This document shows, piece by piece, positions 23,903 to 64,000 of a DNA stretch of 64,000 nt. The notes under the pieces are model-generated. The model had not been told where the DNA came from. It made no database searches and saw nothing but the letters and a program-made list of their open reading frames with translations. The first letter of the stretch is position 1; each line of letters starts with the position of its first letter. A program made the translations under genes and the position numbers. Origin of the DNA: a virus (taxonomy: Duplodnaviria; Caudoviricetes); the IMG/VR virus record IMGVR_UViG_3300029913_000001; one strand, 5' to 3'.

Positions 23903-24541
23903 TTAGACGTCTCTAATAATTTCGCCGATTCGTTCTTTCAAATAAGGTAAATCGAAATTATTGTCGATTACATAGTCAACCTTTGTATTAATCCAACCCC
24001 ATTCAGAAATATGAACACCCGGATAGTCAATGCTCATACGATTATCTGTTGCAATATTTTCTCCCGACTTAATTACGGCTACCGCCGTATCGTGCCATTC
24101 GGGTAATGGTCCGCGATCAACTCTACACAAGGTAGCATTTACGTTAGTTAATACCTTAAGTTCATTTATAAATCGGCAATCACTAATAACAAAATCTAAT
24201 TTTGAATCAACTAATTTTCTTTCTAACGAGGCAACCCATATATCTTGATGAAACATATTTCTATTAACATCGGTTCCCCAATTTTGTAATACCCATCGAG
24301 GAGTTAATTCAGGAATACCAAGGCGATTGGACCACCAATCATCTATTTGCTCCCGCCAAACACGACTCGCTTTTGTTTTTCCATCTAACATTTTTAACGG
24401 CCAGCCAAAAATAATAGACACGGCTTCTTTTAATGAATCTGCAAATGCAACCTGATGGAATCCATAATCGTTTACTAAAATATTACTTACTGTGTCTTTA
24501 CCTGATCCAATTAAACCAAGTAAGCCAATAATTCTACCCAT
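23903..24541 (-). CDS. Deoxynucleoside monophosphate kinase (T4 gp1-like)
   Basis: GLIGSGKDT P-loop, FADSLKE, PRWVLQ, ISDCRF motifs. Confidence 0.92.
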   Translation of the reverse strand: MGRIIGLLGLIGSGKDTVSNILVNDYGFHQVAFADSLKEAVSIIFGWPLKMLDGKTKASRVWREQIDDWWSNRLGIPELTPRWVLQNWGTDVNRNMFHQDIWVASLERKLVDSKLDFVISDCRFINELKVLTNVNATLCRVDRGPLPEWHDTAVAVIKSGENIATDNRMSIDYPGVHISEWGWINTKVDYVIDNNFDLPYLKERIGEIIRDV

Positions 24542-33648: not shown

Positions 33649-33802
33649 TCCATATTCTCTAGCACATAATAATTATATACTAACTTTTAATAGCCAGCAA
33701 GATAATTAGACCAATATACTTTTGATCCTGCTGCTAAAATAAAGCTATAACTAAAAAATATCATTATATAAGCCAAAGTATAATTACTACTTGCATTACT
33801 TT

Positions 33803-33831
33803 TGAGAAAGCATTACTACATACTTATAGTG
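33803..33831 (+). promoter_or_regulatory. Sigma70-type promoter for the endonuclease gene
   Basis: TTGAGA-17-TATAGT, then GAGG Shine-Dalgarno and GTG 33841. Confidence 0.6.
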
Positions 33832-33840
33832 AGGCGATCT

Positions 33841-35589
33841 GTGATAGATATATTACAAAACATTATTAATACAAGACCGTTCTATGCATCCCGAATTATT
33901 GCTAATAATACCGAAATGTGGAAATGGGTAATGCAACATTGCGATCCTTTATGCATTGATGACAAAACTCGAATTTATACCGCAATATCAGGCGAAAAAA
34001 TTCAATGCCCATGCGGCTCCGGAAAACTTAGAAAATTGTCTAAATGGTATTCGGGATTATCTTTTTGTGGAAGAGCAGGAAAGTGTTCTGCTGCAAAAGA
34101 AGCGGTGATTAAAAAATGTACCGCCGCTGCCAAAGGATGGGATAAAAAAGCGGCCGCTGCAAAAAGAAAAACAACGAATCTTAAGAAATATGGCATAACT
34201 AATACCGGCCAGCTTGAAAAATCAAAACTTGCTAGAAAAGCAGTGTACGACGATCCCACTAAAGTCAAAGAAATTCTTCAAAAAATGCAGGCCACTAACC
34301 GGGAACGATATGGTGTTGATAACCCATCTCAAAATCCAGAAATTCATAAACGTCAGACGAATACAATGTATGAGAGGTACGGCGCGGCTAACGCCATTAA
34401 AATTGCAGATTTTAAAAATCAAATGCAGCAAACTAATATCGAAAGATATGGCGTACCATACGCATCACAAAATGCAGATATTGCAAGAAAAATTGGGCTA
34501 ACTAAAAAACAGACCATGTTGGAGGGAACTGGCAGGCCACACGAAACTCAAATTCATATATCTAACGATGCATGGAATATTCTTCATGATAAAGATAAAT
34601 TTACTGAATTGTTAACCTTACTTGGACGCACAGAATTAGCAAAAATGTTAGGAGTATGTGTAAATACTATTTCCGTATATCATTATAATTTTGGGCTAGA
34701 TATATTAAAAAATTCAGAATCGGCTGTGGAAATTGAAATTACGAACTGGCTCACTGGATTAAATATAAGTTCCCATAAAGATCGAACAATATGTGAGGGA
34801 AAAGAATTAGATTTTTATATTCCTTCATATAATCTAGCAATTGAATATAATGGCCTATTTTGGCATTCTGAAGCACGAGGAAAAGATAAAAATTATCATT
34901 ACAATAAAATGTTACAATGTAATAAAAATAACATCCATCTAATTCATATTTTTGAGGATGAGTGGATTAAAAATCCAAACACATGCAAATCAATTATACA
35001 GCAAAATCTTCATCTAGGAAATAGGATTGCTGCACGAAAATGCAAGATTAAAGAAATCCCCAATAACGACATGCGGGAATTCTTAAACAAAAATCATTTA
35101 CAAGGTTGGGTTAACGGAACGCACGCATATGTGCTGACCTATCAAGATGAAATTGTGGCGGCAATGACATTTGGCAAACCTCGATATAACAAGCAAGCCG
35201 ATTGGGAACTTTTACGACTTACATTTAAAAACAACACAGTTATTATGGGTGGCGCTCAAAAATTATGGAAATTCGCCATTAATGAATTACAGGCAACATC
35301 TATTATCTCTTATTGCGATCGGCGATGGTTCACCGGCGCGGTGTACAATAAACTCGGATTCACTCTTAAAACTCCGGGTGCGCCTACATATTGGTACACA
35401 GATTATGTCTCTAGATGGCACCGTAGTAAATTTACAAAGAAAAATTTATTAAAATTAAGCAAAAATATCGATATAAATCCTACCCAAGAAGATTGGTCTA
35501 TATATAGTGAATCCCAAATAACAAAAGATATTCTCGGATTAGATCGAATTTGGGATTGCGGTCAAGATAGTTGGTTTTGGACAAAATAG
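33841..35589 (+). CDS. Putative homing endonuclease (PD-(D/E)xK/Hef-like, YGVxNP repeats)
   Basis: ELDFYIPSYNLAIEYNGLFWHSE; ARKC..HLQG..ISYCDRRWF..GF C-terminal domain. Confidence 0.85.
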   Translation: MIDILQNIINTRPFYASRIIANNTEMWKWVMQHCDPLCIDDKTRIYTAISGEKIQCPCGSGKLRKLSKWYSGLSFCGRAGKCSAAKEAVIKKCTAAAKGWDKKAAAAKRKTTNLKKYGITNTGQLEKSKLARKAVYDDPTKVKEILQKMQATNRERYGVDNPSQNPEIHKRQTNTMYERYGAANAIKIADFKNQMQQTNIERYGVPYASQNADIARKIGLTKKQTMLEGTGRPHETQIHISNDAWNILHDKDKFTELLTLLGRTELAKMLGVCVNTISVYHYNFGLDILKNSESAVEIEITNWLTGLNISSHKDRTICEGKELDFYIPSYNLAIEYNGLFWHSEARGKDKNYHYNKMLQCNKNNIHLIHIFEDEWIKNPNTCKSIIQQNLHLGNRIAARKCKIKEIPNNDMREFLNKNHLQGWVNGTHAYVLTYQDEIVAAMTFGKPRYNKQADWELLRLTFKNNTVIMGGAQKLWKFAINELQATSIISYCDRRWFTGAVYNKLGFTLKTPGAPTYWYTDYVSRWHRSKFTKKNLLKLSKNIDINPTQEDWSIYSESQITKDILGLDRIWDCGQDSWFWTK

Positions 35590-35590
35590 T

Positions 35591-35620
35591 AAAAAGCCTA
35601 TCTAGATTGATAGGCTTTTT
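35591..35620. terminator. Bidirectional terminator between convergent endonuclease genes
   Basis: AAAAAGCCTATC-tagatt-GATAGGCTTTTT. Confidence 0.85.
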
Positions 35621-35623
35621 AGT

Positions 35624-37162
35624 TTAAATATGTTTCCAAGTTTTTCTAGAAATAATATAATAGATAATTACATCTGACACTCCAAATTCATTCGCGAATG
35701 ATTTATATGTGGTAACTCCTTTTATATATCTAGATCGAATTTCTAATACTTGAGATTCAGTAAGTTTGGCTTTTGCACAACGTTCACCTTTTGGACCGGT
35801 GCCGGGATGTAACTTGCCTTTTTGCGCAAGACTCATGTTAGCGCGGGCTTCGTCTGATTTTGGTTTATTTTTTAACGCTTCTCTAATTTTTTGTTTTGTT
35901 ACTTCGGATCGGCATCTTCCTCGATTTGGATTATTTTCGCTAGATAAAGCCGTTGATATTTTTTGAATTGTCTCCGGAGATTTATTTTTACCTGGGTTAG
36001 CATCACTTTTCATGCGATTCGATAATCTCTGCCGAGCCTCTGCCGATATATTCGATGAACGACCTTTCATTTTTAGACTCTGTGCTAATTTTTGTTCGGG
36101 TGTTTTGTGTGTTCCAAAATTCGGATTATCTGCGCCGCATCTAGGATTTTTAGCGTGCGCAATACTCATATTTTCTTTTGCTTTTTCTGATTTCGGTACT
36201 CCTTTCTGCGCGGCGCTCATTTTCTTTTTAGTCTCTTCTGATTTGGGTTTACTATTCGCTTTGCGAATTCGTTCTAGCCCACCTGGCCCAGGTGATTTTC
36301 TTCCAGCCGCATTAAGATTAATCCACCTAGAATCGTTAACTACGTGGCATCGGCGTAATACCGATTGTTCCCAATAATCTGCTTGTGGAATTGTATCAAA
36401 AGTTCGTCTTATTTCATATTCAAATGATTCGATTCCATATTCTTTAATTAATTTATTAATTTGCTTGGAACTAGTAGTATAATTAAACATAAAATCTTGC
36501 AACGGAGTTAGACCTAATTTAATATTTTTAGTTCTAACTCCATAATAAACTTGGCCGGTCGGCTTAAATTTAAGTAGATATGTATATGGTCGAATTTCAT
36601 TTATTTCTCTTTGATATTTCGAACTATATTGTCTACGGGTTTTAATCCGATTATCGATTACTTTTTGGATTTTCTCTTGTTTTAGTCGTTCTTTTCCTCT
36701 CTTATATTTTTCCGAGCAAGCTCGTCTAATTAATTCTCGTTCAGTTTTACGACGTTCGAATTCTTCAACTCGTTCTGGGATTTGTGCTGCATTAGTAACG
36801 CCTTCACCATAGGTCTCTTCCATATTTTCCATTCGATGTTCAACCATTTGCTGAACTGCTTCTGGATGAGTTTTCCAAAAATTCGATAAATTTTCTGCCT
36901 GACTTGCAGATTTACATTTTTTCGATCCGCATGTATTCCAATATCCTTTTTCAAATGTATTAAACAATAAATTCTCACCGCAATCACATTTCGATGGCTC
37001 AATATTCCTAGTAATGCAATAAAATTGCTCATTAATATTACGACAATTTCTTGTATTATTCCAATTATCCAAAAATTTTCGAAGTTCCGGCCTCGAATGT
37101 ACTAATCTATGAAAACTTTTTGAATTATATTTTTGTACTAGCTCTTGAATTAATGAAATCAT
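35624..37162 (-). CDS. GIY-YIG-like homing endonuclease with NUMOD3 repeats and C-terminal HTH
   Basis: PYTYLL...YYGVR; repeated K.SEETKKKMS; AKLTESQVLEIR. Confidence 0.85.
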   Translation of the reverse strand: MISLIQELVQKYNSKSFHRLVHSRPELRKFLDNWNNTRNCRNINEQFYCITRNIEPSKCDCGENLLFNTFEKGYWNTCGSKKCKSASQAENLSNFWKTHPEAVQQMVEHRMENMEETYGEGVTNAAQIPERVEEFERRKTERELIRRACSEKYKRGKERLKQEKIQKVIDNRIKTRRQYSSKYQREINEIRPYTYLLKFKPTGQVYYGVRTKNIKLGLTPLQDFMFNYTTSSKQINKLIKEYGIESFEYEIRRTFDTIPQADYWEQSVLRRCHVVNDSRWINLNAAGRKSPGPGGLERIRKANSKPKSEETKKKMSAAQKGVPKSEKAKENMSIAHAKNPRCGADNPNFGTHKTPEQKLAQSLKMKGRSSNISAEARQRLSNRMKSDANPGKNKSPETIQKISTALSSENNPNRGRCRSEVTKQKIREALKNKPKSDEARANMSLAQKGKLHPGTGPKGERCAKAKLTESQVLEIRSRYIKGVTTYKSFANEFGVSDVIIYYIISRKTWKHI

Positions 37163-42983: not shown

Positions 42984-43856
42984 TTAAAGAACACTTTTTT
43001 TATTTGTTCCTTCGCTATCTCCGGTTTTCTTGACAGATGGACCGGGCTTTAATCGGGCCTTGCCACCGGGTACATTAACTACATCTGGTGTAAACTTGCC
43101 GGACGTTGGTGTTGGACGCCCCTTTTCAGGACTGCCACCCTGAGCAATATTCTTGGCAGAAATGCCCTTAACAATCTCATTCTTACCAGCAACAGGAGAC
43201 TTTTTCTGTGTACTCGGCTCTTCTGTTGAATTGGCAAGACCTTTGGTTACCTTTTCTACATACTCACGGATAACACTTTCGTCTACCGGCTCTTCATCAT
43301 CTTCATCATCCAAGTCGTCTTCCTCATCTTCAGACTCAGTTTCAGTTTCGTCATCGTTATCGTCAGACTCGGTTTCAGTTTCAGTTTCGGTTTCGGTCTC
43401 ATCTGAGAATTCGTCTTCATCTTCGAAGTCATCGTCGAGATCTTCGGTGTCGTCTAGATCTAGATCTTCTGCTTCGGTATCTAATGAAGCATCTTCAGAC
43501 TCATCGTCACCATCCACCTGTAATTCATCAAATTCTGCCTTAAGAGCATCAAACTCGTTCTCAAGATCGGAAAGACGATCATCGACTTCGGGTGTTAGTT
43601 CTTCGTCTTCTAGATCAGAATCAGCAAGAACGTCAGATTTAAGATCATCCTGCTCGTCTCCGCCAAACTCATCTAACTCGTGGGAAGTTTCGTCTGACTC
43701 AACTTCATCAAAGTTTCTAGAAGTATCGCCGTCTAAATCTAGATCCTCATAAATTTTACGACTCTTGTCAACAACGATGCTATGAAAAAGTCGGCGAGCC
43801 TTTTTCTCATCATTTGCAACTACATATTCGATAAGTTTTTCAAACTTAGATGCCAT
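42984..43856 (-). CDS. Highly acidic prohead core protein (gp67/gp22-like)
   Basis: Long Asp/Glu tract then VIREYVEKV; start refined to MASKFEK. Confidence 0.7.
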   Translation of the reverse strand: MASKFEKLIEYVVANDEKKARRLFHSIVVDKSRKIYEDLDLDGDTSRNFDEVESDETSHELDEFGGDEQDDLKSDVLADSDLEDEELTPEVDDRLSDLENEFDALKAEFDELQVDGDDESEDASLDTEAEDLDLDDTEDLDDDFEDEDEFSDETETETETETESDDNDDETETESEDEEDDLDDEDDEEPVDESVIREYVEKVTKGLANSTEEPSTQKKSPVAGKNEIVKGISAKNIAQGGSPEKGRPTPTSGKFTPDVVNVPGGKARLKPGPSVKKTGDSEGTNKKSVL

Positions 43857-44022
43857 TGTATTCTCCTTTAATCTAACAAACTTCTTTGATGTATTTACTT
43901 TCACTTAATATTTTTTAGGCTATAAGCGAGCTAATTTAGTATTTTCCTTAAAAAATCTAAATCCACTATAATTGTATTTACCTTCAATTTTATAAATCCA
44001 TTATATAAAAGCAGATTTGTTA

Positions 44023-44883
44023 TTACTTTTCTTTTATTTCTTTCCATTCATTAACTAACGCTTTTATTTTTTCTACATTTCCAAGAGCTCTAAAATATCT
44101 GTTCGATAAATTACCATTAGATTTATAATTTTCTTGATTATCCCAAATACGACTTATAATCTTCTGGTTATTTTCTACGGTTACAAATGGGTGCCAAATA
44201 TGAGATACAGAACTCGGTAATGTTTTATGTGGGCCGTAAAGTGTGTCCATTACCCGCATTGCGGTAACATCTTCCCCTCCCCAACCACGAAATCTTTCAT
44301 CCCAGCCACCGGTAATTTTAAAAGCCTCCCTTGGCATAATTTGAAATAATGCACCATAACGATGCCCATGGACCGACCCAGACAACCCATTAAAATCTTT
44401 AGTTATTAAAATTTCATCGGTTTCGGGCTCATGATATTTATTATTTGAATTTGTTTGTAACAATTTTTTTGATGCAGATTCATTCAATCGAAAAAATTTT
44501 CTATATGGTATAAACCAGAGCGTATGTTTTTTCTTTCTTGCTTTTCTAATCTCCATAGCACATTTTAACACCGAATCGGTTGATATATATCCATCGGCGT
44601 CCGCAATAACAAAAATATCTCCCAATGCTCTTTTAGCAGCATAATTAACCGCACAGGCTTTTGAAAAGGGTTGGTTATTTATATTAACTTTTTCATCGAT
44701 TCCCATAATAATTTCTGCGCCCGGCAAATGAAATTTCCAATATTCATATAACCAGTTCCAATTTAGAGTTCGTTGATTAGCTGAAGGCGAAGAATAAAAT
44801 GGAACCAGAATGCTAATACCATTGCCTTTCAAGCAAAAAAATTTTGCGATAGTAAATTTAATTAGTTGGTAATTAATTTTCAT
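44023..44883 (-). CDS. Glycosyltransferase (GT-A fold, GT2/GT7-like)
   Basis: ILVPF, FSKA.AVN, IADAD, GGWDE.F.GWGGED motifs. Confidence 0.85.
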   Translation of the reverse strand: MKINYQLIKFTIAKFFCLKGNGISILVPFYSSPSANQRTLNWNWLYEYWKFHLPGAEIIMGIDEKVNINNQPFSKACAVNYAAKRALGDIFVIADADGYISTDSVLKCAMEIRKARKKKHTLWFIPYRKFFRLNESASKKLLQTNSNNKYHEPETDEILITKDFNGLSGSVHGHRYGALFQIMPREAFKITGGWDERFRGWGGEDVTAMRVMDTLYGPHKTLPSSVSHIWHPFVTVENNQKIISRIWDNQENYKSNGNLSNRYFRALGNVEKIKALVNEWKEIKEK

Positions 44884-45644
44884 ATAACTTTTCCTAATTC
44901 TCGAAGTGCATCATAAATTGAAAATTTGACTTCTTCGACAAGAACTCTAGATGGTTCAACCATTTTTCCTAACTCAAATGGCGTTCTAATTGACGCGCTA
45001 TAATCTCGAAATTTAAATAAGCCGCCTTCATTCGCCATTTTTTCGCAAAGTTCTACACGCCGTGGAATTCCGCCAAATGAATCAGCCACAATCATTCCAT
45101 GTAAAGAAGACGTAACTATTCTACGACTAGCACCGATTTCACTAATCACCTGTAACGGCGGATCTAAAGGATTAATTACCTTAATAGAAAATTTATTTGG
45201 AATTAATTTTTTAAATCGACTAACTAATTCTGTATCTCGCCAATGAGGGACAATTCCCAAATCCCATTGTTTTTTAATTGGCTCAATTAATTCATTTGCT
45301 AATATACCAGGATCGCCCAATGTAAAATTACCGCTAAACCCTCTAGCAGATAATGGGCCGCGCAAAGCTAAAATTTTTGCAGTTGAACCAAACGAGCCCA
45401 ATCTCGAATTCTCAAATAATTTTCCCGACCCCACAATGTAACCATCCCAGTCAGGAGGAATATATTCTAAAATTGATCCGCAAACCGTAACCAATGATCT
45501 CGAAATGGTATCTCTTTCCACTTGTTTAATATCGGCAAACCGCGAAAGAATCAACGGAGTTAACGCATCCCCAAAATTAGGCATTTTATTCCACCAAAAC
45601 GCTTTAATTGAAGAGTTTGCTCTAAAAAATTTTGAAAGAATCAT
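44880..45644 (-). CDS. Polysaccharide pyruvyltransferase-like protein
   Basis: NFGD, GSIL, LRGPLS, GDPG, SSLHG.I.ADSFG motifs. Confidence 0.8.
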   Translation of the reverse strand: MILSKFFRANSSIKAFWWNKMPNFGDALTPLILSRFADIKQVERDTISRSLVTVCGSILEYIPPDWDGYIVGSGKLFENSRLGSFGSTAKILALRGPLSARGFSGNFTLGDPGILANELIEPIKKQWDLGIVPHWRDTELVSRFKKLIPNKFSIKVINPLDPPLQVISEIGASRRIVTSSLHGMIVADSFGGIPRRVELCEKMANEGGLFKFRDYSASIRTPFELGKMVEPSRVLVEEVKFSIYDALRELGKVI

Positions 45645-54158: not shown

Positions 54159-55499
54159 TTACATATTCTTTAAGTCGATATATGCGTATTCACCAAAAGG
54201 TGGAACAATGTTGGGAGTAGAAATTATCCAGGTTACATCAGTGTAAAATTCATCTCCCCAGGTATTATTTGGATAGCCATCAGTGAAAACGATTAGCCTG
54301 GTTGGAACTATTCCTTCTTCCTTAAGATAATCAAAAATACTTTCGAAGGAAGTACCGCCACCACCCATAGGTTGATAGTTGCAAATATCTTCACCATTTT
54401 CGGAGGTAAAAGTTTGCGGATTTAATACCACGGTATCGAAGCAAAAAACTGTGATAGCATATTGAGGAAATTGTTGCATCATTCCATTAACTTCGGAAAG
54501 AAATTGTTGAGCTTCCTTCGAATTAATCGAACCGGACTGATCGATTGCAACAACAACGTTAAGCATTTTTTCAGTGGTAAGTCCGGGAAGAATAGCTTCC
54601 AAACCCCAACCCTTACGGCAAATTCGAGTAAAACTGTAATCAGCCGGAATCATACTATCAATCTGGCATTGCAGAAGTTCTCGCCAATCCATCTTCGGGG
54701 CCGTTAAATTCTGAATTAACCGATTGATACCGGCCGGAAGAGAACCGGCTGCGCAAAGTTTTGCCGCATTGACAATATTGTCGCGCATCTCAGCTTTGAT
54801 CTGATTACGCTCTTCATCGCTTAATTTAGCGGGACCGGATTTTGATGGTTTCCCATCCTGCCCGCCATCACCAGAACCGTCGCCCGTCTGGCTCGGATCT
54901 AAATGCTCATCCAACAACTTATCCAGCATTTCGTCTAGTGACATCTGACCAGATCCGCCACCCTGACCGCTGCCATTGTTTTTTTGCTGATTCTTTTGGA
55001 GGTCTTCGTATACGTCCTCACTCAGCCATCCACGATATTTAATATCGTGCAACCCGACATCCTGTTTAACTTTATGCGTGCGTCCGGTAACCGGGTCCTT
55101 TACTTCAACCTCTTCCGTTGGAAATTTTCCAACATTCGCTAGAATCAAATCGTCATTAACGACATAATCAGCGGCGCAATTATACAATTTCCTATTTCGA
55201 CCTTCATTTCGGCCTAAATGGTCAAAAACCAAATGACTGATTTCGTGAGCGAAAACAAACACGAGCTCATCGTTTGTTAAATTATCGACGAATCGATGGT
55301 TATAATACAAATATTTTCCATCTACCGCCATCGTGGGGCACCACTCGTCAGCAGGTTGCATTTGCAGCCGCATTGCCAACGACCCGAAAAACTTCTGCGT
55401 CCAAAGCATCCCTACGCGAGCTTGAATAATCTTCTCGTGTACACGATCTTCAACCTCTTTCGAGATTGGCTCTTTTGAAATGTTTGCCTTCTTATCCAT
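54159..55499 (-). CDS. Metallopeptidase-like (HExxH) plus VWA domain protein (DUF2201 type)
   Basis: AHEISH; MIDAS AIDQSGS; VFTDG; start refined to 55499. Confidence 0.88.
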   Translation of the reverse strand: MDKKANISKEPISKEVEDRVHEKIIQARVGMLWTQKFFGSLAMRLQMQPADEWCPTMAVDGKYLYYNHRFVDNLTNDELVFVFAHEISHLVFDHLGRNEGRNRKLYNCAADYVVNDDLILANVGKFPTEEVEVKDPVTGRTHKVKQDVGLHDIKYRGWLSEDVYEDLQKNQQKNNGSGQGGGSGQMSLDEMLDKLLDEHLDPSQTGDGSGDGGQDGKPSKSGPAKLSDEERNQIKAEMRDNIVNAAKLCAAGSLPAGINRLIQNLTAPKMDWRELLQCQIDSMIPADYSFTRICRKGWGLEAILPGLTTEKMLNVVVAIDQSGSINSKEAQQFLSEVNGMMQQFPQYAITVFCFDTVVLNPQTFTSENGEDICNYQPMGGGGTSFESIFDYLKEEGIVPTRLIVFTDGYPNNTWGDEFYTDVTWIISTPNIVPPFGEYAYIDLKNM

Positions 55500-55505
55500 G
55501 ATTAA

Positions 55506-55534
55506 AGTATATTGCCTTTCCACAAAAAAGTCAA
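55506..55534 (-). promoter_or_regulatory. Sigma70-type promoter, probably giving a leaderless mRNA
   Basis: TTGACT-17-TATACT, 6 nt before ATG 55499, no Shine-Dalgarno. Confidence 0.75.
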
Positions 55535-55696
55535 GAAAATTTAAGTCCTTTAAAATCAACAGACCATTAAAATACCGCCCCACGAGCGTTTATGCCATAC
55601 CCAGCCACGTTCAGACCCCTTAAGGGGCGTCGTGGGGCGTTATTTACAAAATTGCCCCTTTAAAATCAACAAGTTGCAAAGCAACTTTTATCGTTC

Positions 55697-55740
55697 AATC
55701 AACGAGCCAAGCAGGTTTAAACCTGCTTGGCTCGTTGATT
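55697..55740. repeat. 44-bp perfect palindrome (probable terminator)
   Basis: AATCAACGAGCCAAGCAGGTTT|AAACCTGCTTGGCTCGTTGATT. Confidence 0.9.
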
Positions 55741-55748
55741 ATACCATA

Positions 55749-56960
55749 TTACCGAGTGGTTTGCAGTGCATACTTCGCAAACTTCTCAATAAACTGCGGC
55801 CAGCTCTTAAGGTTTACAAACTGATACTTTGTACCCTTAAGGGAAACGCCAAAATTAAAATTGGAAAATTCCATACGAGCCGCCATCATTCCAATTTCCA
55901 ATTCCACCTGAGTGAGAATGAAGCCGTTAAAATTATCTAGCATCTTCATCCAAGTTTTCACATCGTTGTCGTTATTCCACTTCCGATCAGCAACCTTACG
56001 GTTCGAAACCGAAATGGATGTTCCTGTAGTAACACTATTATTCGTCCAAAATTCATTCATTTCGTACAGCATACCCACAATCAACTGATAGTGAGCAGAA
56101 ATCTCTCGAGTATTAATCGTGGTAACCTTGCCGTTAAGAATATCAGACGGCTTCGGCAATCCCTTACCAACCTTCAGGTATGCCATAAAATCGGTGGCAG
56201 TACCCGCGCCCACAGCAGACGTCATGAATTCACGAATTTCCGTATCACTCAGCTTCTCCTCGTCGGGCTCGGTGGTAATCAACTGGCTCGCAAATTCATA
56301 GCTGCGCGGAGTAGGAAACGACTTGTCGGCGCTAGTTGGATCAAATTCATAGAGCTTATGCCGAAAAGTCGAAAGGAAGGAAACGATATCCGGATGAATC
56401 TTGGCAGGAATAGCCCAATCAAGCCATGAATCAAAATCGGCCTTAATTTCAAAATGAAGGAACCGGTTTGACAACGGCGCCGGCATACGGAAGGTAACAC
56501 CGCGATCTGTTTCGCGATTGCCAGCGGCGAGGACGCAAACATTATCGGGCAACGTATATGTTCCAACCTTACGGTCAAGAACAAGTTGATATGCAGCGGC
56601 TTGCACCGACGGCGGAGCGCTGTTCATCTCGTCAAGGAAAAGAATGACGATTGGAAAACCGTCGCAAAATTCCTTGGTTGGTAATTGCTCGGGAGGAGCC
56701 CAGCACATTACATTACGGCCATTTTCATCCTTTGCAGGATACGGAATGCCCTTAATGTCAGTCGGATCCATCTGGCTCAACCGAATATCAATAACAACTC
56801 CGCCGAGTTCCTTGGCGAGCGCATTGATACCGCAGGACTTTCCGAGGCCAGGGCCACCCCAAACAAACGCGGGACGCTTAACCTTAAGGCACCGCTTGAG
56901 CCGGAGAACCAGATCAGTCATGGTAAGAGCATTAGATGTGTCAGTTCGATTTGAAACCAT
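55749..56960 (-). CDS. MoxR-like AAA+ ATPase
   Basis: Walker A GGPGLGKS, Walker B FLDEMN, AAGNR, PLSNRF. Confidence 0.92.
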   Translation of the reverse strand: MVSNRTDTSNALTMTDLVLRLKRCLKVKRPAFVWGGPGLGKSCGINALAKELGGVVIDIRLSQMDPTDIKGIPYPAKDENGRNVMCWAPPEQLPTKEFCDGFPIVILFLDEMNSAPPSVQAAAYQLVLDRKVGTYTLPDNVCVLAAGNRETDRGVTFRMPAPLSNRFLHFEIKADFDSWLDWAIPAKIHPDIVSFLSTFRHKLYEFDPTSADKSFPTPRSYEFASQLITTEPDEEKLSDTEIREFMTSAVGAGTATDFMAYLKVGKGLPKPSDILNGKVTTINTREISAHYQLIVGMLYEMNEFWTNNSVTTGTSISVSNRKVADRKWNNDNDVKTWMKMLDNFNGFILTQVELEIGMMAARMEFSNFNFGVSLKGTKYQFVNLKSWPQFIEKFAKYALQTTR

Positions 56961-58768: not shown

Positions 58769-59422
58769 TTATGAATGACTGATTCCAGGAATGCATTGCG
58801 CTTTAAAAAATTCTCGTTCGTCATTAGCTATCGAGCTGTCTTCATACCAAGGAAGATGTTCAATTACATAGGGAAAATCTAACCTTACATGCCCGGCAGG
58901 CGGCCACTTTGCCCAGCCTGGCTCATACATTGCAAATGTAGTGTCTATTGCAGCACGCCAACAATCGCCTTCTTTAGTTCGAGTATCCCAATACTTACCT
59001 TCACTAATTAGCATTTCTTGTTTCTTTGCATAATGCGCAGGAAGATTATCGATTCGAATAGCCGGTCCAACTTTAATAGGAGCATATCTATCGGCAACTT
59101 CGTTCATTTTCCTTACTAAATCTTTCGGACAATTTGCATCGGGGACAACATCGGGATCGGTAACAATATAACGAGAAGTTTGAATCGGAGACAACCCTAA
59201 ATGCCAAAATGCATCTTGACCCAAATTTTTCTTTCGATTCAAAACCAATAAATTACTTTCATCATAATATTTCAATAAGGGTTCCCAGGTCGATGCATTG
59301 TCAATCACTGCAATTTGAGTCATTCCCGCCGAATGCAACCAATCAACCAATTTTCGAAACCCACGTTCTAAATTATTAAAATTTGTAATATAAATAGGAG
59401 TTGCTTTCCAATCAGTTATCAT
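58769..59422 (-). CDS. Glycosyltransferase family 2-like protein
   Basis: IDNAST, VTDPD (DxD), IDTTFA motifs. Confidence 0.8.
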   Translation of the reverse strand: MITDWKATPIYITNFNNLERGFRKLVDWLHSAGMTQIAVIDNASTWEPLLKYYDESNLLVLNRKKNLGQDAFWHLGLSPIQTSRYIVTDPDVVPDANCPKDLVRKMNEVADRYAPIKVGPAIRIDNLPAHYAKKQEMLISEGKYWDTRTKEGDCWRAAIDTTFAMYEPGWAKWPPAGHVRLDFPYVIEHLPWYEDSSIANDEREFFKAQCIPGISHS

Positions 59423-59910
59423 TCACTTTCCTCAGTATATTCGAACTCTAAATCAAGCTTTTCTACTACAAAGTCATCTAATTTAATTTTAAAATCAGGT
59501 AACGTTTTAGGAATATCTCCCTCATAATTTTTAGCAACAGAAATATGAGGAATATATTCCGCAAAATCATATGTTGCACCCATATCTTTGGATGCATTAA
59601 AAATAGTTGTCAGCTCCGAATCTTCTAATTTTAGAACTAGCAAATGATCTTTCCCAAAAATTTCCCAACCGATAGGATTAACATTAATAGGAACTTCTGG
59701 ATTAAGATTGGCTAGCTCTGGCACTGGCTTACGAGAATAAACAATAGTTACATGATATTCGCTAGGATCCACCAAATTCTCAAAATTCTTCTCTTTTAAC
59801 CAAGCCGATAATTTATTACGAGACTTATCGGATAATGTCATCTTAGCATAGGTACCCGACGTGGGTTCTTTCTGTTCCTCTTCCATTAAAAAATCACTAA
59901 ACAATTTCAT
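59419..59910 (-). CDS. acb1: 2H phosphoesterase, Acb1/T4 gp57B-like (putative anti-CBASS nuclease)
   Basis: GTYA, HVTIVYS and YIPHISV double HxT/S motifs. Confidence 0.75.
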   Translation of the reverse strand: MKLFSDFLMEEEQKEPTSGTYAKMTLSDKSRNKLSAWLKEKNFENLVDPSEYHVTIVYSRKPVPELANLNPEVPINVNPIGWEIFGKDHLLVLKLEDSELTTIFNASKDMGATYDFAEYIPHISVAKNYEGDIPKTLPDFKIKLDDFVVEKLDLEFEYTEESE

Positions 59911-59915
59911 ATTCG

Positions 59916-60284
59916 TTATACGTATCCTCTTGCAAAATTTTCGATATCATCCTGAAATTTAAAAAGCAAAGCAATCTGTTCATCAGCAATATATAAAATC
60001 GAATCTGTTGATTTTCCGTAAAAATAATGAGGGGAAGGCATTCGAGTTAACCCGATAAGAAGAGCGGCGGTCCATGTAATACCTAGCGGTATACTAAATT
60101 CGTAAAAGGAAATTTTGGCTTCGCGAAAACGTTCAAATCCTTTTTCACTTAATCGCATACTACTATTATTTCCAATACGATGCCACCAAAATTTATCTTC
60201 GCCATATGGCAATTCGATGCCAGTACGGCGCAAATATCCACGATATACTTTAGCAGTCCATTCGTCTTTTGTTAATAAACTCAT
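59916..60284 (-). CDS. Hypothetical protein
   Basis: Intact co-oriented ORF with ATGA coupling. Confidence 0.6.
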   Translation of the reverse strand: MSLLTKDEWTAKVYRGYLRRTGIELPYGEDKFWWHRIGNNSSMRLSEKGFERFREAKISFYEFSIPLGITWTAALLIGLTRMPSPHYFYGKSTDSILYIADEQIALLFKFQDDIENFARGYV

Positions 60285-61312
60285 AGTGATAAAGTTAATC
60301 CTACGTTAGGAGAGTATCCAATATAAGATACTGGTATTCCAAATCTATGCTCTATGTCCCAAATAAAAAATTTAGTTTTATCTGTTAAATCATCAAACCT
60401 TTTTGCATTAATATTCTCACAATCTAAATAATCAACAAAATTAATAGCTAATTTGGTTGGCCGATTAATTTCAATTGCTCTCTTTAATAATTCATAGTCA
60501 AATCGACCGACTCTTCTTAATTTTTTAGTAACCGTTGTATATTCCTTGATTGAATGAGAATACCCACTTTCCTCCTGTAGCGTTTCCCAATCAATTTCAT
60601 TATATAATGGCACAGCCTGCTGACCGGCTACTCTGATTGGAAAGGTTCGAAGTACCATAACTATTTCATTTACCAATAAAGGACTAATTCCGCATTCACT
60701 GATGCATCCCGACGCAGAAGTATCTCTAGAAGTTGCTTTAGGATAAAATCCGCCGTGATAAAGTGAGAGCCCAAATCCTTGGGTGCCTTCTACCAGAATA
60801 TTTTTACCATCATCGATACCTGTATTTATTTCCTTCGATGCATCAACTATAAAAGATTTAATTTCAGGAATATCTTTTGCTAATATAATATCATTACCAC
60901 GAAGAATCTTACGAGATACCGCCGCGCCAACGCCACATAATGTCGAACTAATATTAGTTCGCATATTAAGGTCATTTTCATCTCTAATATCTTGAGGCTG
61001 AATTATCATAGCATTTGCGTCGATACCAACTCGTTCTGGTCCTAATTTTAATAAATTTAATTCGGCTACCAGAACATCGATATCAATTAAACCTCCGGAC
61101 GGAATTAGCAATCTAGAGTTTAACCTAAGAATTCCGCTAGGTATTTGTCGAAGCACATGATTTACTCCATAATTATCGGTAAAACAATGTCCCGAATTTG
61201 GGCCGCCGCACCTAACACATATATCGATATTTTCTTTTTGCGTTATGAAAGAAGAAATTTTACCTTTTCCTTCAGAGCCAAACTGACCGCCAACAACTAC
61301 CCAAACGCCCAT
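60281..61312 (-). CDS. purZ: PurZ0-like 2-amino-deoxyadenylosuccinate synthetase (short PurA-family paralog, 343 aa)
   Basis: GGQFGSEGKGK (Ser at the PurA catalytic Asp), GGPNSGH, EGTQG, TSRD, FPIRVAG, TTVTKKLRR, NFVDYL; start refined by AGGAG Shine-Dalgarno. Confidence 0.8.
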   Translation of the reverse strand: MGVWVVVGGQFGSEGKGKISSFITQKENIDICVRCGGPNSGHCFTDNYGVNHVLRQIPSGILRLNSRLLIPSGGLIDIDVLVAELNLLKLGPERVGIDANAMIIQPQDIRDENDLNMRTNISSTLCGVGAAVSRKILRGNDIILAKDIPEIKSFIVDASKEINTGIDDGKNILVEGTQGFGLSLYHGGFYPKATSRDTSASGCISECGISPLLVNEIVMVLRTFPIRVAGQQAVPLYNEIDWETLQEESGYSHSIKEYTTVTKKLRRVGRFDYELLKRAIEINRPTKLAINFVDYLDCENINAKRFDDLTDKTKFFIWDIEHRFGIPVSYIGYSPNVGLTLSL

Positions 61313-61313
61313 A

Positions 61314-62306
61314 TTAACTCCTAGGAAAAGCCGTTCCAAGCAACTGAGAAAAATAATTTGCCTGGTCACTAATTTTATTTAACTCATACTTCCCACAGAA
61401 TTTTAAAAAGTGAAATCCTAGCTGAGGGACCGACTTTGGTTCACACGCATCGGCTATTGTTTCAGAAATTACCGTACATATTTCATCCGGTTGTTTAGAC
61501 AAATCAACTAATCCCACATTACGGTTGTAATCATCTAACACTCGATGCTCTAGGCCCTCATGATCTGTCCAACGAGTTAACATAAAAGCATTCCAAGAAA
61601 ATCCCTGTCTATTTCGATCATCAAACGCTTCTTGCATACCCACTTTATTCTTTGATCCTTTTTTACGAGCTCCCGGGTAGGCGGCGAATACATTATCTGT
61701 TACGCAACCACGCACCGCTTTCTCAAATACAGACCAGTGTGGGTCATCTGGCATTTTTGGAGAGCCGGTTTTTTTATCTTTTACAGGATTATTTTTATAA
61801 TCAAAAATACCGTTAAGTGTAATAGTTTGATCCATAATACCATCATACATTGTAACATTGTCGGCGAGTAGCTGAACAAAATCTTTATCCGAACTTACAA
61901 CAATATGGGCATCATCAGGATGGGACTGAATAAATCCAGCTACCAAATCATCGGCTTCTAAAATGGGATTATATAAAACAGTGCAATTGGTACGCTCAGT
62001 TATAAACTTTTGAAAATCGGAAAACGCCGAATAAAAAATAGTGTCTAATTCTTGCTGTGCCGGCGTCGCTAGCGCTCTTTTTTCCGCGCGATTTCTTTTA
62101 TATGGAGCGTAAACCGATTTCCTCCACGATTTTCCATCAAATGCAAAAATTATATGGTCGGCTTTCTGCACTCGCCATAACTTTCCCAAACTTGCGAAAA
62201 TAATATGCAGACACATACCGGCAATTTCGTCAGGTGTTCCTTTAACCGTGTACTTGGACCGGTTAAATAAATGGGATGCGTCAACAATTAAAAATGTATT
62301 CTTCAT
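61314..62306 (-). CDS. rnh: RNase H / 5'-3' flap exonuclease (T4 rnh-like)
   Basis: IVDAS, FDG.SWRK, YK.NR, EADD, SSDKDF.QL, TDN motifs. Confidence 0.92.
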   Translation of the reverse strand: MKNTFLIVDASHLFNRSKYTVKGTPDEIAGMCLHIIFASLGKLWRVQKADHIIFAFDGKSWRKSVYAPYKRNRAEKRALATPAQQELDTIFYSAFSDFQKFITERTNCTVLYNPILEADDLVAGFIQSHPDDAHIVVSSDKDFVQLLADNVTMYDGIMDQTITLNGIFDYKNNPVKDKKTGSPKMPDDPHWSVFEKAVRGCVTDNVFAAYPGARKKGSKNKVGMQEAFDDRNRQGFSWNAFMLTRWTDHEGLEHRVLDDYNRNVGLVDLSKQPDEICTVISETIADACEPKSVPQLGFHFLKFCGKYELNKISDQANYFSQLLGTAFPRS

Positions 62307-63200: not shown

Positions 63201-64000
63201 CTAACTACCCCATACATTTTTCCAGAGTTCAACCTGGAGTCTCGGTGAATATCTATACCCATTTGTGATCGCCAATTCAGCAACTCTTTTATTTGTTAAA
63301 TTATACGTTTCGGTGGTTCCCCCGACTGGCATGACATACACCGAACCGGTAAACCCAGCATCTCGATATTCTTTCACCGCTAATTTTGCATCGTCGAAAT
63401 CTTCTTCGGTCCCGACAACAAACTTCAAATATGTTCTACTACCAGGAATCATTGTATATCCTATAACTACCTTAGGTTTAATAGATGACTCCCAGGTTTC
63501 ACCTGAGCAAGGCAATTTTGCGCTAACCGAAAAAGTAGTTTCTAACTTGCTATTATTAAAGTGCCGACAAAGAGCCATTCTTAGTTCACTAGTAATTTCC
63601 ATCGTACCATTCGTTTCAAAAGTGAGATGTGTTAAGCCCATATCGCGTTTAACAAATTCATCTAACAATTCTGGGTATTGTTTTTGCCAGGCCAATAATG
63701 GTTCTCCACCAGTTAAAATTAAATGGCAATCCTGATTAAATTTCCCGTTATGCAATAATAGCTGAATACGATCTGCAATTTGTGATATCGTTTGTTCTGG
63801 ACTAAAATCCTTAAATCGTGGATCCCACGACATATAGGAATCGCAGCCTGTAGAAACCAATGGAGCATCTTCATATTTTGTCAATTGTTCGGGTAAAATT
63901 GTAAAGCGTTCTACACTTTTTTCGCCGCGCGGCATTGAGAAGCCTTCGCACTTTTTATTGCAGCCAAATACCCTTAGAAAAATTGAAGGAACCCCCTGAT
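63201..64000 (-). CDS. queE: 7-carboxy-7-deazaguanine synthase QueE (radical SAM), 5'-truncated by the window edge
   Basis: Frame stays open upstream of 63935: GVPSIFLRVFGCNKKCEGF...GCDSY; TGGEP, FETNG, SAKL, LKFV, YVMP, SPRLQ motifs. Confidence 0.88.
   Translation of the reverse strand, partial: QGVPSIFLRVFGCNKKCEGFSMPRGEKSVERFTILPEQLTKYEDAPLVSTGCDSYMSWDPRFKDFSPEQTISQIADRIQLLLHNGKFNQDCHLILTGGEPLLAWQKQYPELLDEFVKRDMGLTHLTFETNGTMEITSELRMALCRHFNNSKLETTFSVSAKLPCSGETWESSIKPKVVIGYTMIPGSRTYLKFVVGTEEDFDDAKLAVKEYRDAGFTGSVYVMPVGGTTETYNLTNKRVAELAITNGYRYSPRLQVELWKNVWGS

Follow-up and report, generated by a model that had tools for sequence, protein, structure and literature searches.

A solitary Ser-type, PurZ-like synthetase gene in a T4-related peat phage groups with the genes of a cellular four-gene cassette

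Results

The Synthetase Gene and Its Surroundings

The stretch analysed here (hereafter the window) comprises 64,000 nt of a phage genome of about 293 kb from peat, IMG/VR virus record IMGVR_UViG_3300029913_000001. On its minus strand, at positions 60281..61312, lies a short gene that Pfam, PHROG, active-site residues and phylogeny assign to the adenylosuccinate synthetase family, of the Ser-type (PurZ-like) kind; its 343-aa product has an intact catalytic set. The open reading frame (ORF) is translated without a stop, and its family matches are far beyond chance (Pfam Adenylsucc_synt, 3e-49; PHROG 1211, 8e-70). The initial annotation had read this gene as a PurZ0-type enzyme of a large T4-related myovirus, and had inferred a genome in which 2-aminoadenine (Z) may replace adenine fully or partly. 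The T4 relationship is borne out by a Gp23 capsid protein (3e-96), a tail sheath, a portal, T4 baseplate proteins and a gp1-type dNMP kinase in the window. The enzyme itself, as described below, belongs to a separate and mostly cellular lineage.

The start of the synthetase is marked by a ribosome-binding site, AGGAG (61322-61318, minus strand, read from the sequence), 5 nt 5' of the ATG at 61312. A longer, GTG-initiated ORF (to 61369) was rejected as the start because the homologues begin at the same MxVWVVVGGQ. Immediately upstream, a 5'-3' exonuclease of the T4 RNase H/FEN type (61314..62306, minus strand; Pfam 5_3_exonuc_N, 5.6e-20; PHROG 107) ends with its TAA at 61316-61314, which leaves one base before the synthetase ATG, so that the gene layout suggests co-transcription of the two genes. 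On the other side, an orphan ORF of 122 aa (59916..60284, minus strand) begins with an ATG overlapping the synthetase stop (ATGA), which places the synthetase inside a tightly packed minus-strand unit. This ORF matched no family in Pfam or PHROG and nothing in the atlas, and its Atlas model is poor. It is followed by a homologue of the phosphodiesterase Acb1 (59419..59910, minus strand; Pfam Acb1, 1.1e-25), an enzyme directed against the cyclic-oligonucleotide-based anti-phage signalling system (CBASS); this gene lies two genes downstream of the synthetase in a shared accessory block. A family-2 glycosyltransferase-like gene (58769..59422, minus strand; Pfam Glycos_transf_2, 1.5e-4, below the gathering score) ends this block, and at the opposite end of the region a QueE-like radical-SAM gene (63201..64000, minus strand; PHROG 2076, 2.5e-41) runs off the window.

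The synthetase gene is accessory, since no PF00709 gene was found in ten phages whose Gp23 is 75-82% identical. Two of these ten are near-complete (374 and 318 kb); their orthologue of the exonuclease is 53% identical to that of the window, and they keep the synteny of queE, a 123-aa gene and rnh but without the block formed by the synthetase, the 122-aa ORF, Acb1 and the glycosyltransferase. The composition of the synthetase gene is fully phage-like, with a GC content at third codon positions of 0.23 versus 0.48-0.67 in the Acidobacterial homologues, which argues for a long residence in an AT-rich phage lineage. The phage was found again in at least 15 peat metagenomes. A megablast of the locus against deposited phages returned no match, and the only deposited phages with relatives of the synthetase are small Z-type sipho-/podoviruses, at no more than 36% identity. 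Peat RNA libraries contained sparse contigs over acb1 (the best covered), the 122-aa ORF and the last 160 nt of the synthetase, which do not prove transcription. In a promoter and terminator scan, counts were not above shuffled expectation, and the sole candidate (TTGAAT-17-TATAAT, 62830-62802) is a lead at best.

Phylogenetic Placement of the Synthetase

A search over 5.8 billion proteins returned 6433 matches at E<1e-10, of which the top 120 share 55-65% identity with the window protein; several of these come from contigs of 1-5.5 Mb that bear the label Terriglobales or Sulfotelmatobacter. At the site of the catalytic Asp13 of PurA, these 120 relatives have Ser (105/120) or Gly (15/120). When the matches were clustered at 50% identity, Ser was present in 115 of the top 150 clusters, and Asp-type archaeal PurA first appeared at ~207 bits. 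Overall, the window protein is 57-65% identical to Acidobacterial and cassette genes, 34-38% to Asp-type archaeal PurA and 30-34% to PurZ0 and PurZ.

The initial annotation had proposed a tree with PurA, PurZ and PurZ0, and such trees were built. In a FastTree phylogeny of 159 sequences, the window protein falls inside the clade of the cassette genes described below (support 0.993). A second tree, computed with posterior mean site frequencies (PMSF, LG+C20) on 51 sequences, recovered a Ser-type radiation (99/92) and a superclade of 29 (99/98), in which the window protein is joined by 21 cellular genes and 7 solitary viral copies. There, the window protein forms a clade with eight Acidobacterial genes and one viral contig (95/99). 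The PurZ0 clade (98/94, including the IMG/VR Z-clusters) and the PurZ clade (100/99) both exclude it. A grouping of the window protein with PurZ0 was rejected by the approximately unbiased (AU) test (p=0.0004, difference in log-likelihood 87), and the protein scores 219 bits with the PurZ model NF038379, whose cut-off is 300. Membership in canonical archaeal-type PurA was rejected as well, given Ser13 and a score of 309 bits with the archaeal PurA model NF003295, whose cut-off is 368. We are confident of the lineage assignment and of the rejection of PurZ0 membership, and the original PurZ0-type label does not hold. Because the window protein stands among the cassette genes and PurZ0 stands elsewhere, the PurZ0-like motifs are states common to all of the Ser-type branch and do not mark PurZ0.

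It should be noted that PurZ in the phiVC8 record carries an annotation of similarity to the acidobacterium Solibacter usitatus; cellular Ser-type homologues were thus visible in early annotations but were not pursued. Just four archaeal Ser/Gly sequences, basal to PurZ, are mentioned in PMC12884076.

Active-Site Residues and Fold

The motifs on which the initial annotation had relied are all present in the translation. Ser13 is encoded by tct at 61276-61274, within GGQFGSEGKG, and is followed by FPIRVAG (224-230), TTVTKKLRR (258-266) and NFVDYL (291-296) in a protein of the length that had been given. The window protein was aligned with PurZ from phiVC8, S-2L and JeffCo, PurZ0 from Ghobes and Wayne, and Asp-type archaeal PurA, and was read at the active-site positions that separate PurZ/PurZ0 from PurA (PMC8342488). 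PurZ-type states were found at S13, at T259 (T273 in S-2L, Gly in PurA) and at the site of E. coli R303, which is Lys. These states are predicted to accommodate the guanine 2-amino group and to disfavour a 2'-OH. A short insertion follows the conserved Arg-Val (R227-V228). Moreover, D294 aligns with the Asp of PurZ0, with N297 of phiVC8 and with Q308 of S-2L, giving the GTP-type donor motif N291-F292-x-D294; the assignment of NFVDYL to the GTP-using type, as in PurZ0, was therefore correct. The catalytic residues N39, H42, T124, R138, Q178 and R266 are intact, and the active site further includes T262 and K263 (the Lys at the R303 site). In an alignment of the window protein with 14 proteins of the cassette clade, 90 columns are invariant and so, by definition, all kept in the window protein.

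Taken as a mark of PurZ/PurZ0, the motifs stand in part: the residue states are real and separate the protein from PurA, but they are common to the whole Ser-type radiation and not specific to PurZ0. Since these states match the PurZ determinants, PurZ-like chemistry with a GTP donor (dGMP + Asp + GTP) is a plausible prediction. Comparison with solved structures is less telling. By sequence score, the closest is Pyrococcus PurA (211 bits), versus 126 bits for PurZ0 (7VF6) and 122 and 91 bits for PurZ (6FM1 and 7ODX). A structure model of the window protein (alignment A1, predicted local distance difference test score 84) superposes about equally on all three, with template modelling (TM) scores of 0.87 for Pyrococcus PurA, 0.83 for PurZ0 and 0.82 for PurZ, so that the fold does not discriminate PurA from PurZ.

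A Four-Gene Cassette in Bacteria and Archaea

In every Acidobacterial locus examined, the synthetase is the third of four co-oriented genes preceded by a divergent small helix-turn-helix gene. The order is an RNase_H_2 (+ DUF429-like) protein of ~515 aa, an AAA_18 P-loop kinase, the synthetase and a DCD/dUTPase-fold protein. A profile scan with one genome per species identified at least 563 carriers of cellular relatives, among them Acidobacteriota, Chloroflexota, Nitrospirota, WOR-3, Verrucomicrobiota, cyanobacteria, and Asgard and Methanosarcinales archaea. The Ser-type branch is mostly cellular, with members in both bacteria and archaea, and offers a concrete candidate for where the phage Z pathway came from. 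The cassette loci compared were L001, L002, L006, L094-L173 and L258-L260, and partner genes were counted in the best 80 cellular loci. A DCD-fold partner is present in 74/80, the RNase_H_2 protein in 56/80 and the kinase, sometimes fused to RNase_H_2, in 48/80, while DatZ, MazZ or DpoZ was found in 0/80. Kinase-synthetase, double kinase-synthetase and synthetase-DCD fusions also occur.

The DCD partner is modelled as a dUTPase barrel, closest to a Thermococcus dUTPase, followed by three long helices, and C-terminal transmembrane segments (1-4 helices) were predicted in 25/25 of the partners examined. Given that the partner of this clade is a membrane-anchored dUTPase-fold protein and not a soluble pool editor, the native product of the synthetase may be a signal or effector ligand and not a DNA precursor. 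The cassette kinase resembles the kinase part of a defensive dCTP deaminase (a PADLOC 'dCTPase' match). The cassettes often stand beside restriction genes or on conjugative elements. Their flanks include Type I restriction-modification genes (L006), integrase, RepB and TraG (L001), and IS110 copies on either side (L258); at L259, which lies inside a TrwC/TraG conjugative element, the neighbours are GmrSD, a NERD-kinase and an MmeI-type methyltransferase. By this context signature the cassette is a candidate mobile defence-type system, apparently undescribed. In PADLOC only the kinase finds a match, the synthetase and the DCD partner being without a model, and none of the papers searched connects a PurA-like enzyme with defence or reports the cassette.

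Z-Pathway Partners and Solitary Viral Copies

In known clusters the Z partners lie within 3 kb of purZ. DutZ accompanies PurZ0 in 98/98 genomes, usually with DmtZ, and PurZ clusters have DatZ and MazZ/DUF550 next to the gene (PMC12884076). The searches for such partners cover the window. Queries of DatZ, MazZ, DutZ, DmtZ, DUF5664 and DpoZ, run with phmmer against all 521 six-frame ORFs, found nothing, in agreement with the earlier remark that neither DatZ nor MazZ was to be recognised here, and there is no PolA in the 64 kb. The cassette partners are not in the window either, apart from a weak match (E=0.003) of the cassette kinase to the T4 gp1-type dNMP kinase (23903..24541, minus strand; PHROG 139, 1.6e-47; Pfam DNMK, 2.9e-13).

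The viral relatives behave in two ways. Most IMG/VR loci whose synthetase is no more than 40% identical to that of the window are classic PurZ0 clusters, in which PolA lies upstream of the gene and DutZ and DmtZ follow immediately downstream; DutZ has this position in most of the PurZ0-type loci L037-L093. The viral relatives that are closer, at 38-50% identity and on contigs of up to 312 kb, carry a solitary synthetase, and share no neighbour gene with each other or with the window. Five large viral genomes with a solitary copy (CheckV 73-100% complete, four of them at least 93%) contain no DCD, HD_3, DUF550, FolE or TGT; as a control, HD_3 finds DatZ in phiVC8, S-2L and JeffCo. On the tree, the label 'solitary viral' requires 9 changes.

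The longest of these contigs, a 312-kb IMG/VR contig with terminal repeats (L020/G002), is an unrelated Gp23-positive jumbo phage with a solitary Ser-type synthetase 41% identical to that of the window. Genes for DatZ, DUF550 and DCD are absent from it, and ~150 kb separate its dUTPase from the synthetase. As a second Gp23-positive case, it indicates that the solitary pattern recurs in T4-like jumbo phages.

Other Features of the Window

Several large homing/HNH endonuclease-like ORFs (33802-37162 and 54162-55583) lie in and around the structural module, adjoining the Gp23 gene. At 54159-56960 on the minus strand, a protein of 474 aa comes after a MoxR-type AAA_3 ATPase (403 aa), an odd pair for a phage; the 474-aa protein bears conflicting labels, Pfam DUF2201 (a VWA-like MoxR partner) versus the HNH endonuclease of phrog_1314. 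Among the structural genes, a minus-strand cluster (42984-45644) encodes a family-2 glycosyltransferase (Glyco_tranf_2_2) and a polysaccharide pyruvyl transferase, and may serve the sugar modification of the virion or of DNA.

Discussion

The explanation we favour, to which the sequence comparisons lead us to give an even chance, is that the phage carries an active Ser-type (PurZ-like) enzyme which derives from the cassette lineage of Acidobacteria and other prokaryotes and has long resided in an AT-rich phage lineage as a solitary accessory gene. Such an enzyme would use GTP to condense dGMP with aspartate into N6-succino-2-amino-dAMP, from which host PurB, a (d)NMP kinase and Ndk would go on to make the triphosphate dZTP; the gp1-type dNMP kinase of the phage is a candidate for phosphorylating the product. 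In this way surplus dGMP from a GC-rich host would be diverted towards an A-like nucleotide. Host enzymes are known to complete dZTP synthesis, and Z is accepted by most polymerases (PMC8342488). A T4-type family B polymerase would probably not exclude dZTP, so that partial incorporation of Z would be expected unless the product is consumed elsewhere. Without removal of dATP, the replacement of A by Z would be at most partial and would not give a ZTGC genome. In E. coli, constructs with an incomplete Z cluster, purZ alone among them, replaced less A by Z than did the full cluster (PMC8342488).

Some observations weigh against this explanation. The partner of the cellular synthetases, in nearly all of the loci counted, is anchored in the membrane rather than being a soluble pool-editing enzyme. 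The phage gene adjoins an Acb1 block that is absent from close relatives, which fits a role in counter-defence equally well. Furthermore, the known Z phages are GC-rich to average in composition and always have pool editors (PMC12884076; 10.1101/2025.10.22.683976). The gene may contribute to partial incorporation of Z or act in counter-defence.

Counter-defence is a possibility that we regard as unlikely on balance, although the membrane-anchored cellular partner together with the Acb1 neighbour puts it seriously in play. Here, the cassette would be anti-phage, and a modified purine nucleotide made by its kinase and Ser-type synthetase would govern the membrane-anchored dUTPase-fold effector. 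The phage would have taken the synthetase alone to hold the effector off through the level of its ligand, or to interfere with the host's own enzyme, as through mixed dimers. The conservation of the cassette across phyla, its fusions, its transmembrane partners, its kinase and its restriction-modification, GmrSD-type and mobile-element surroundings all speak for a defence function, as do, for the phage side, the capture of the synthetase alone by large phages on separate occasions and its place in the accessory block. However, PADLOC and the literature offer no counterpart of the cassette, and a phage that makes the product of an alarm synthetase should trigger the effector, so that a speculative 'guard' logic is needed. 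An ordinary supply of adenylate, with an adenylosuccinate synthetase acting on IMP or dIMP to boost A nucleotides for an AT-rich genome, appears quite improbable. Pyrococcus PurA is the best solved match, the archaeal PurA model gives the top NCBIfam score and the GTP-type motif is kept. That score is nonetheless below the cut-off, the catalytic base is replaced by Ser in the window and by Ser or Gly in all 121 of the close relatives, whereas Asp13 shows 99% conservation in the PurA group to which the E. coli enzyme belongs (PMC12884076), and R303, which contacts the ribose 2'-OH, is replaced by Lys. In addition, the cellular copies lie in a variable cassette associated with mobile genetic elements and not in a housekeeping context.

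A fully or nearly fully Z-substituted genome made through a PurZ0-type pathway, the inference of the initial annotation, is not borne out and seems very improbable to us. The PurZ0-like motif states agree with it, and Z partners could lie in the remaining 230 kb of the genome. Yet the protein is outside the PurZ0 clade and below the PurZ cut-off; DutZ, DmtZ, DatZ, MazZ and DpoZ, which sit so close to purZ in real clusters, are not in the window; the gene is missing from the ten capsid-level relatives and is therefore not a trait of the lineage; and the five other large phages with a solitary copy have no DatZ, DUF550 or DCD. With no pool editor nearby, an accessory gene and an AT-rich genome, a full Z genome is unlikely. 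A role for the enzyme in the 7-deazaguanine modification pathway encoded nearby, a link suggested by the position of the synthetase 2 kb downstream of queE on the same strand, is scarcely credible. DpdA-type modification targets DNA and not nucleotides. The two near-complete relatives keep the queE-rnh synteny without the synthetase, and this link was rejected because the other five large phages with a solitary copy show no co-occurrence, having neither FolE nor a TGT/DpdA gene.

We also put forward, tentatively and as a rather unlikely proposal, that PurZ-type chemistry is not a phage invention but lies at the heart of a conflict system that is widespread among prokaryotes and undescribed. 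In such a system, the kinase and the Ser-type synthetase would make a 2-aminoadenine-type (or succinylated) deoxynucleotide read by the membrane-anchored dUTPase-fold effector, and large phages would repeatedly have taken the synthetase alone, either to disarm the system or to put some Z into a genome replicated by a family B polymerase.

To our knowledge, natural Z-DNA is documented only in small sipho-/podoviruses, which have a gene cluster dedicated to it. That a T4-type jumbo phage carries an intact PurZ-like enzyme on its own raises the question of whether low-level or partial Z occurs outside that paradigm. It also raises the question of whether a purZ homologue alone is a safe marker for predicting dZ genomes, as more than 2000 viruses have been predicted as dZ from a purZ homologue (PMC13128860). 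The cassette, for its part, is a testable candidate for a new nucleotide-based immune system.

Comparison with Known Systems

PurZ0 (7VF6), the GTP-dependent succino-amino-deoxyadenylate synthase known from actinophages, among them Gordonia phage Archimedes/Ghobes and Arthrobacter phage Wayne, has the same short archaeal-type fold and shares with the window protein GSE[GA]KG with its Ser, FPIRVAG with a short insertion, TTVTxKxRR with Lys at the R303 site and the Asp of the donor motif. The two differ in sequence, at 30-34% identity, and fall in separate clades, and the window phage is a T4-like jumbo phage without adjacent DutZ, DmtZ or DpoZ. The ATP/dATP-dependent PurZ of Vibrio phage phiVC8 (6FM1) and cyanophage S-2L (7ODX) likewise has Ser13 and Asn-Phe at the start of the donor motif, and the aspartate loop of phiVC8 PurZ, TTVTKKVRR, is almost identical to TTVTKKLRR of the window. 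In contrast, PurZ has GSTGKG, Asn or Gln in place of Asp294 (the ATP type) and, in S-2L and JeffCo, a longer insertion in the RV-loop, and its identity to the window protein is 30-31%. The PurZ phages have DatZ within ~1.5 kb (at most two genes away) and MazZ, located here only in S-2L, whereas the window has neither.

Pyrococcus horikoshii PurA (2D7U/5K7X) is the best match among solved structures and agrees with the window protein in length class and in the GTP-type motif, but is set apart by its Asp13, by the Gly and Arg that occupy the T259 and R303 sites, and by an RV-loop without insertion. The closest likeness is to the cellular cassette: the window synthetase lies in its clade, nested within the larger Ser-type superclade, with up to 65% identity. 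It departs from the cassette in being solitary, with no partners in the window, and in its fully phage-like composition.

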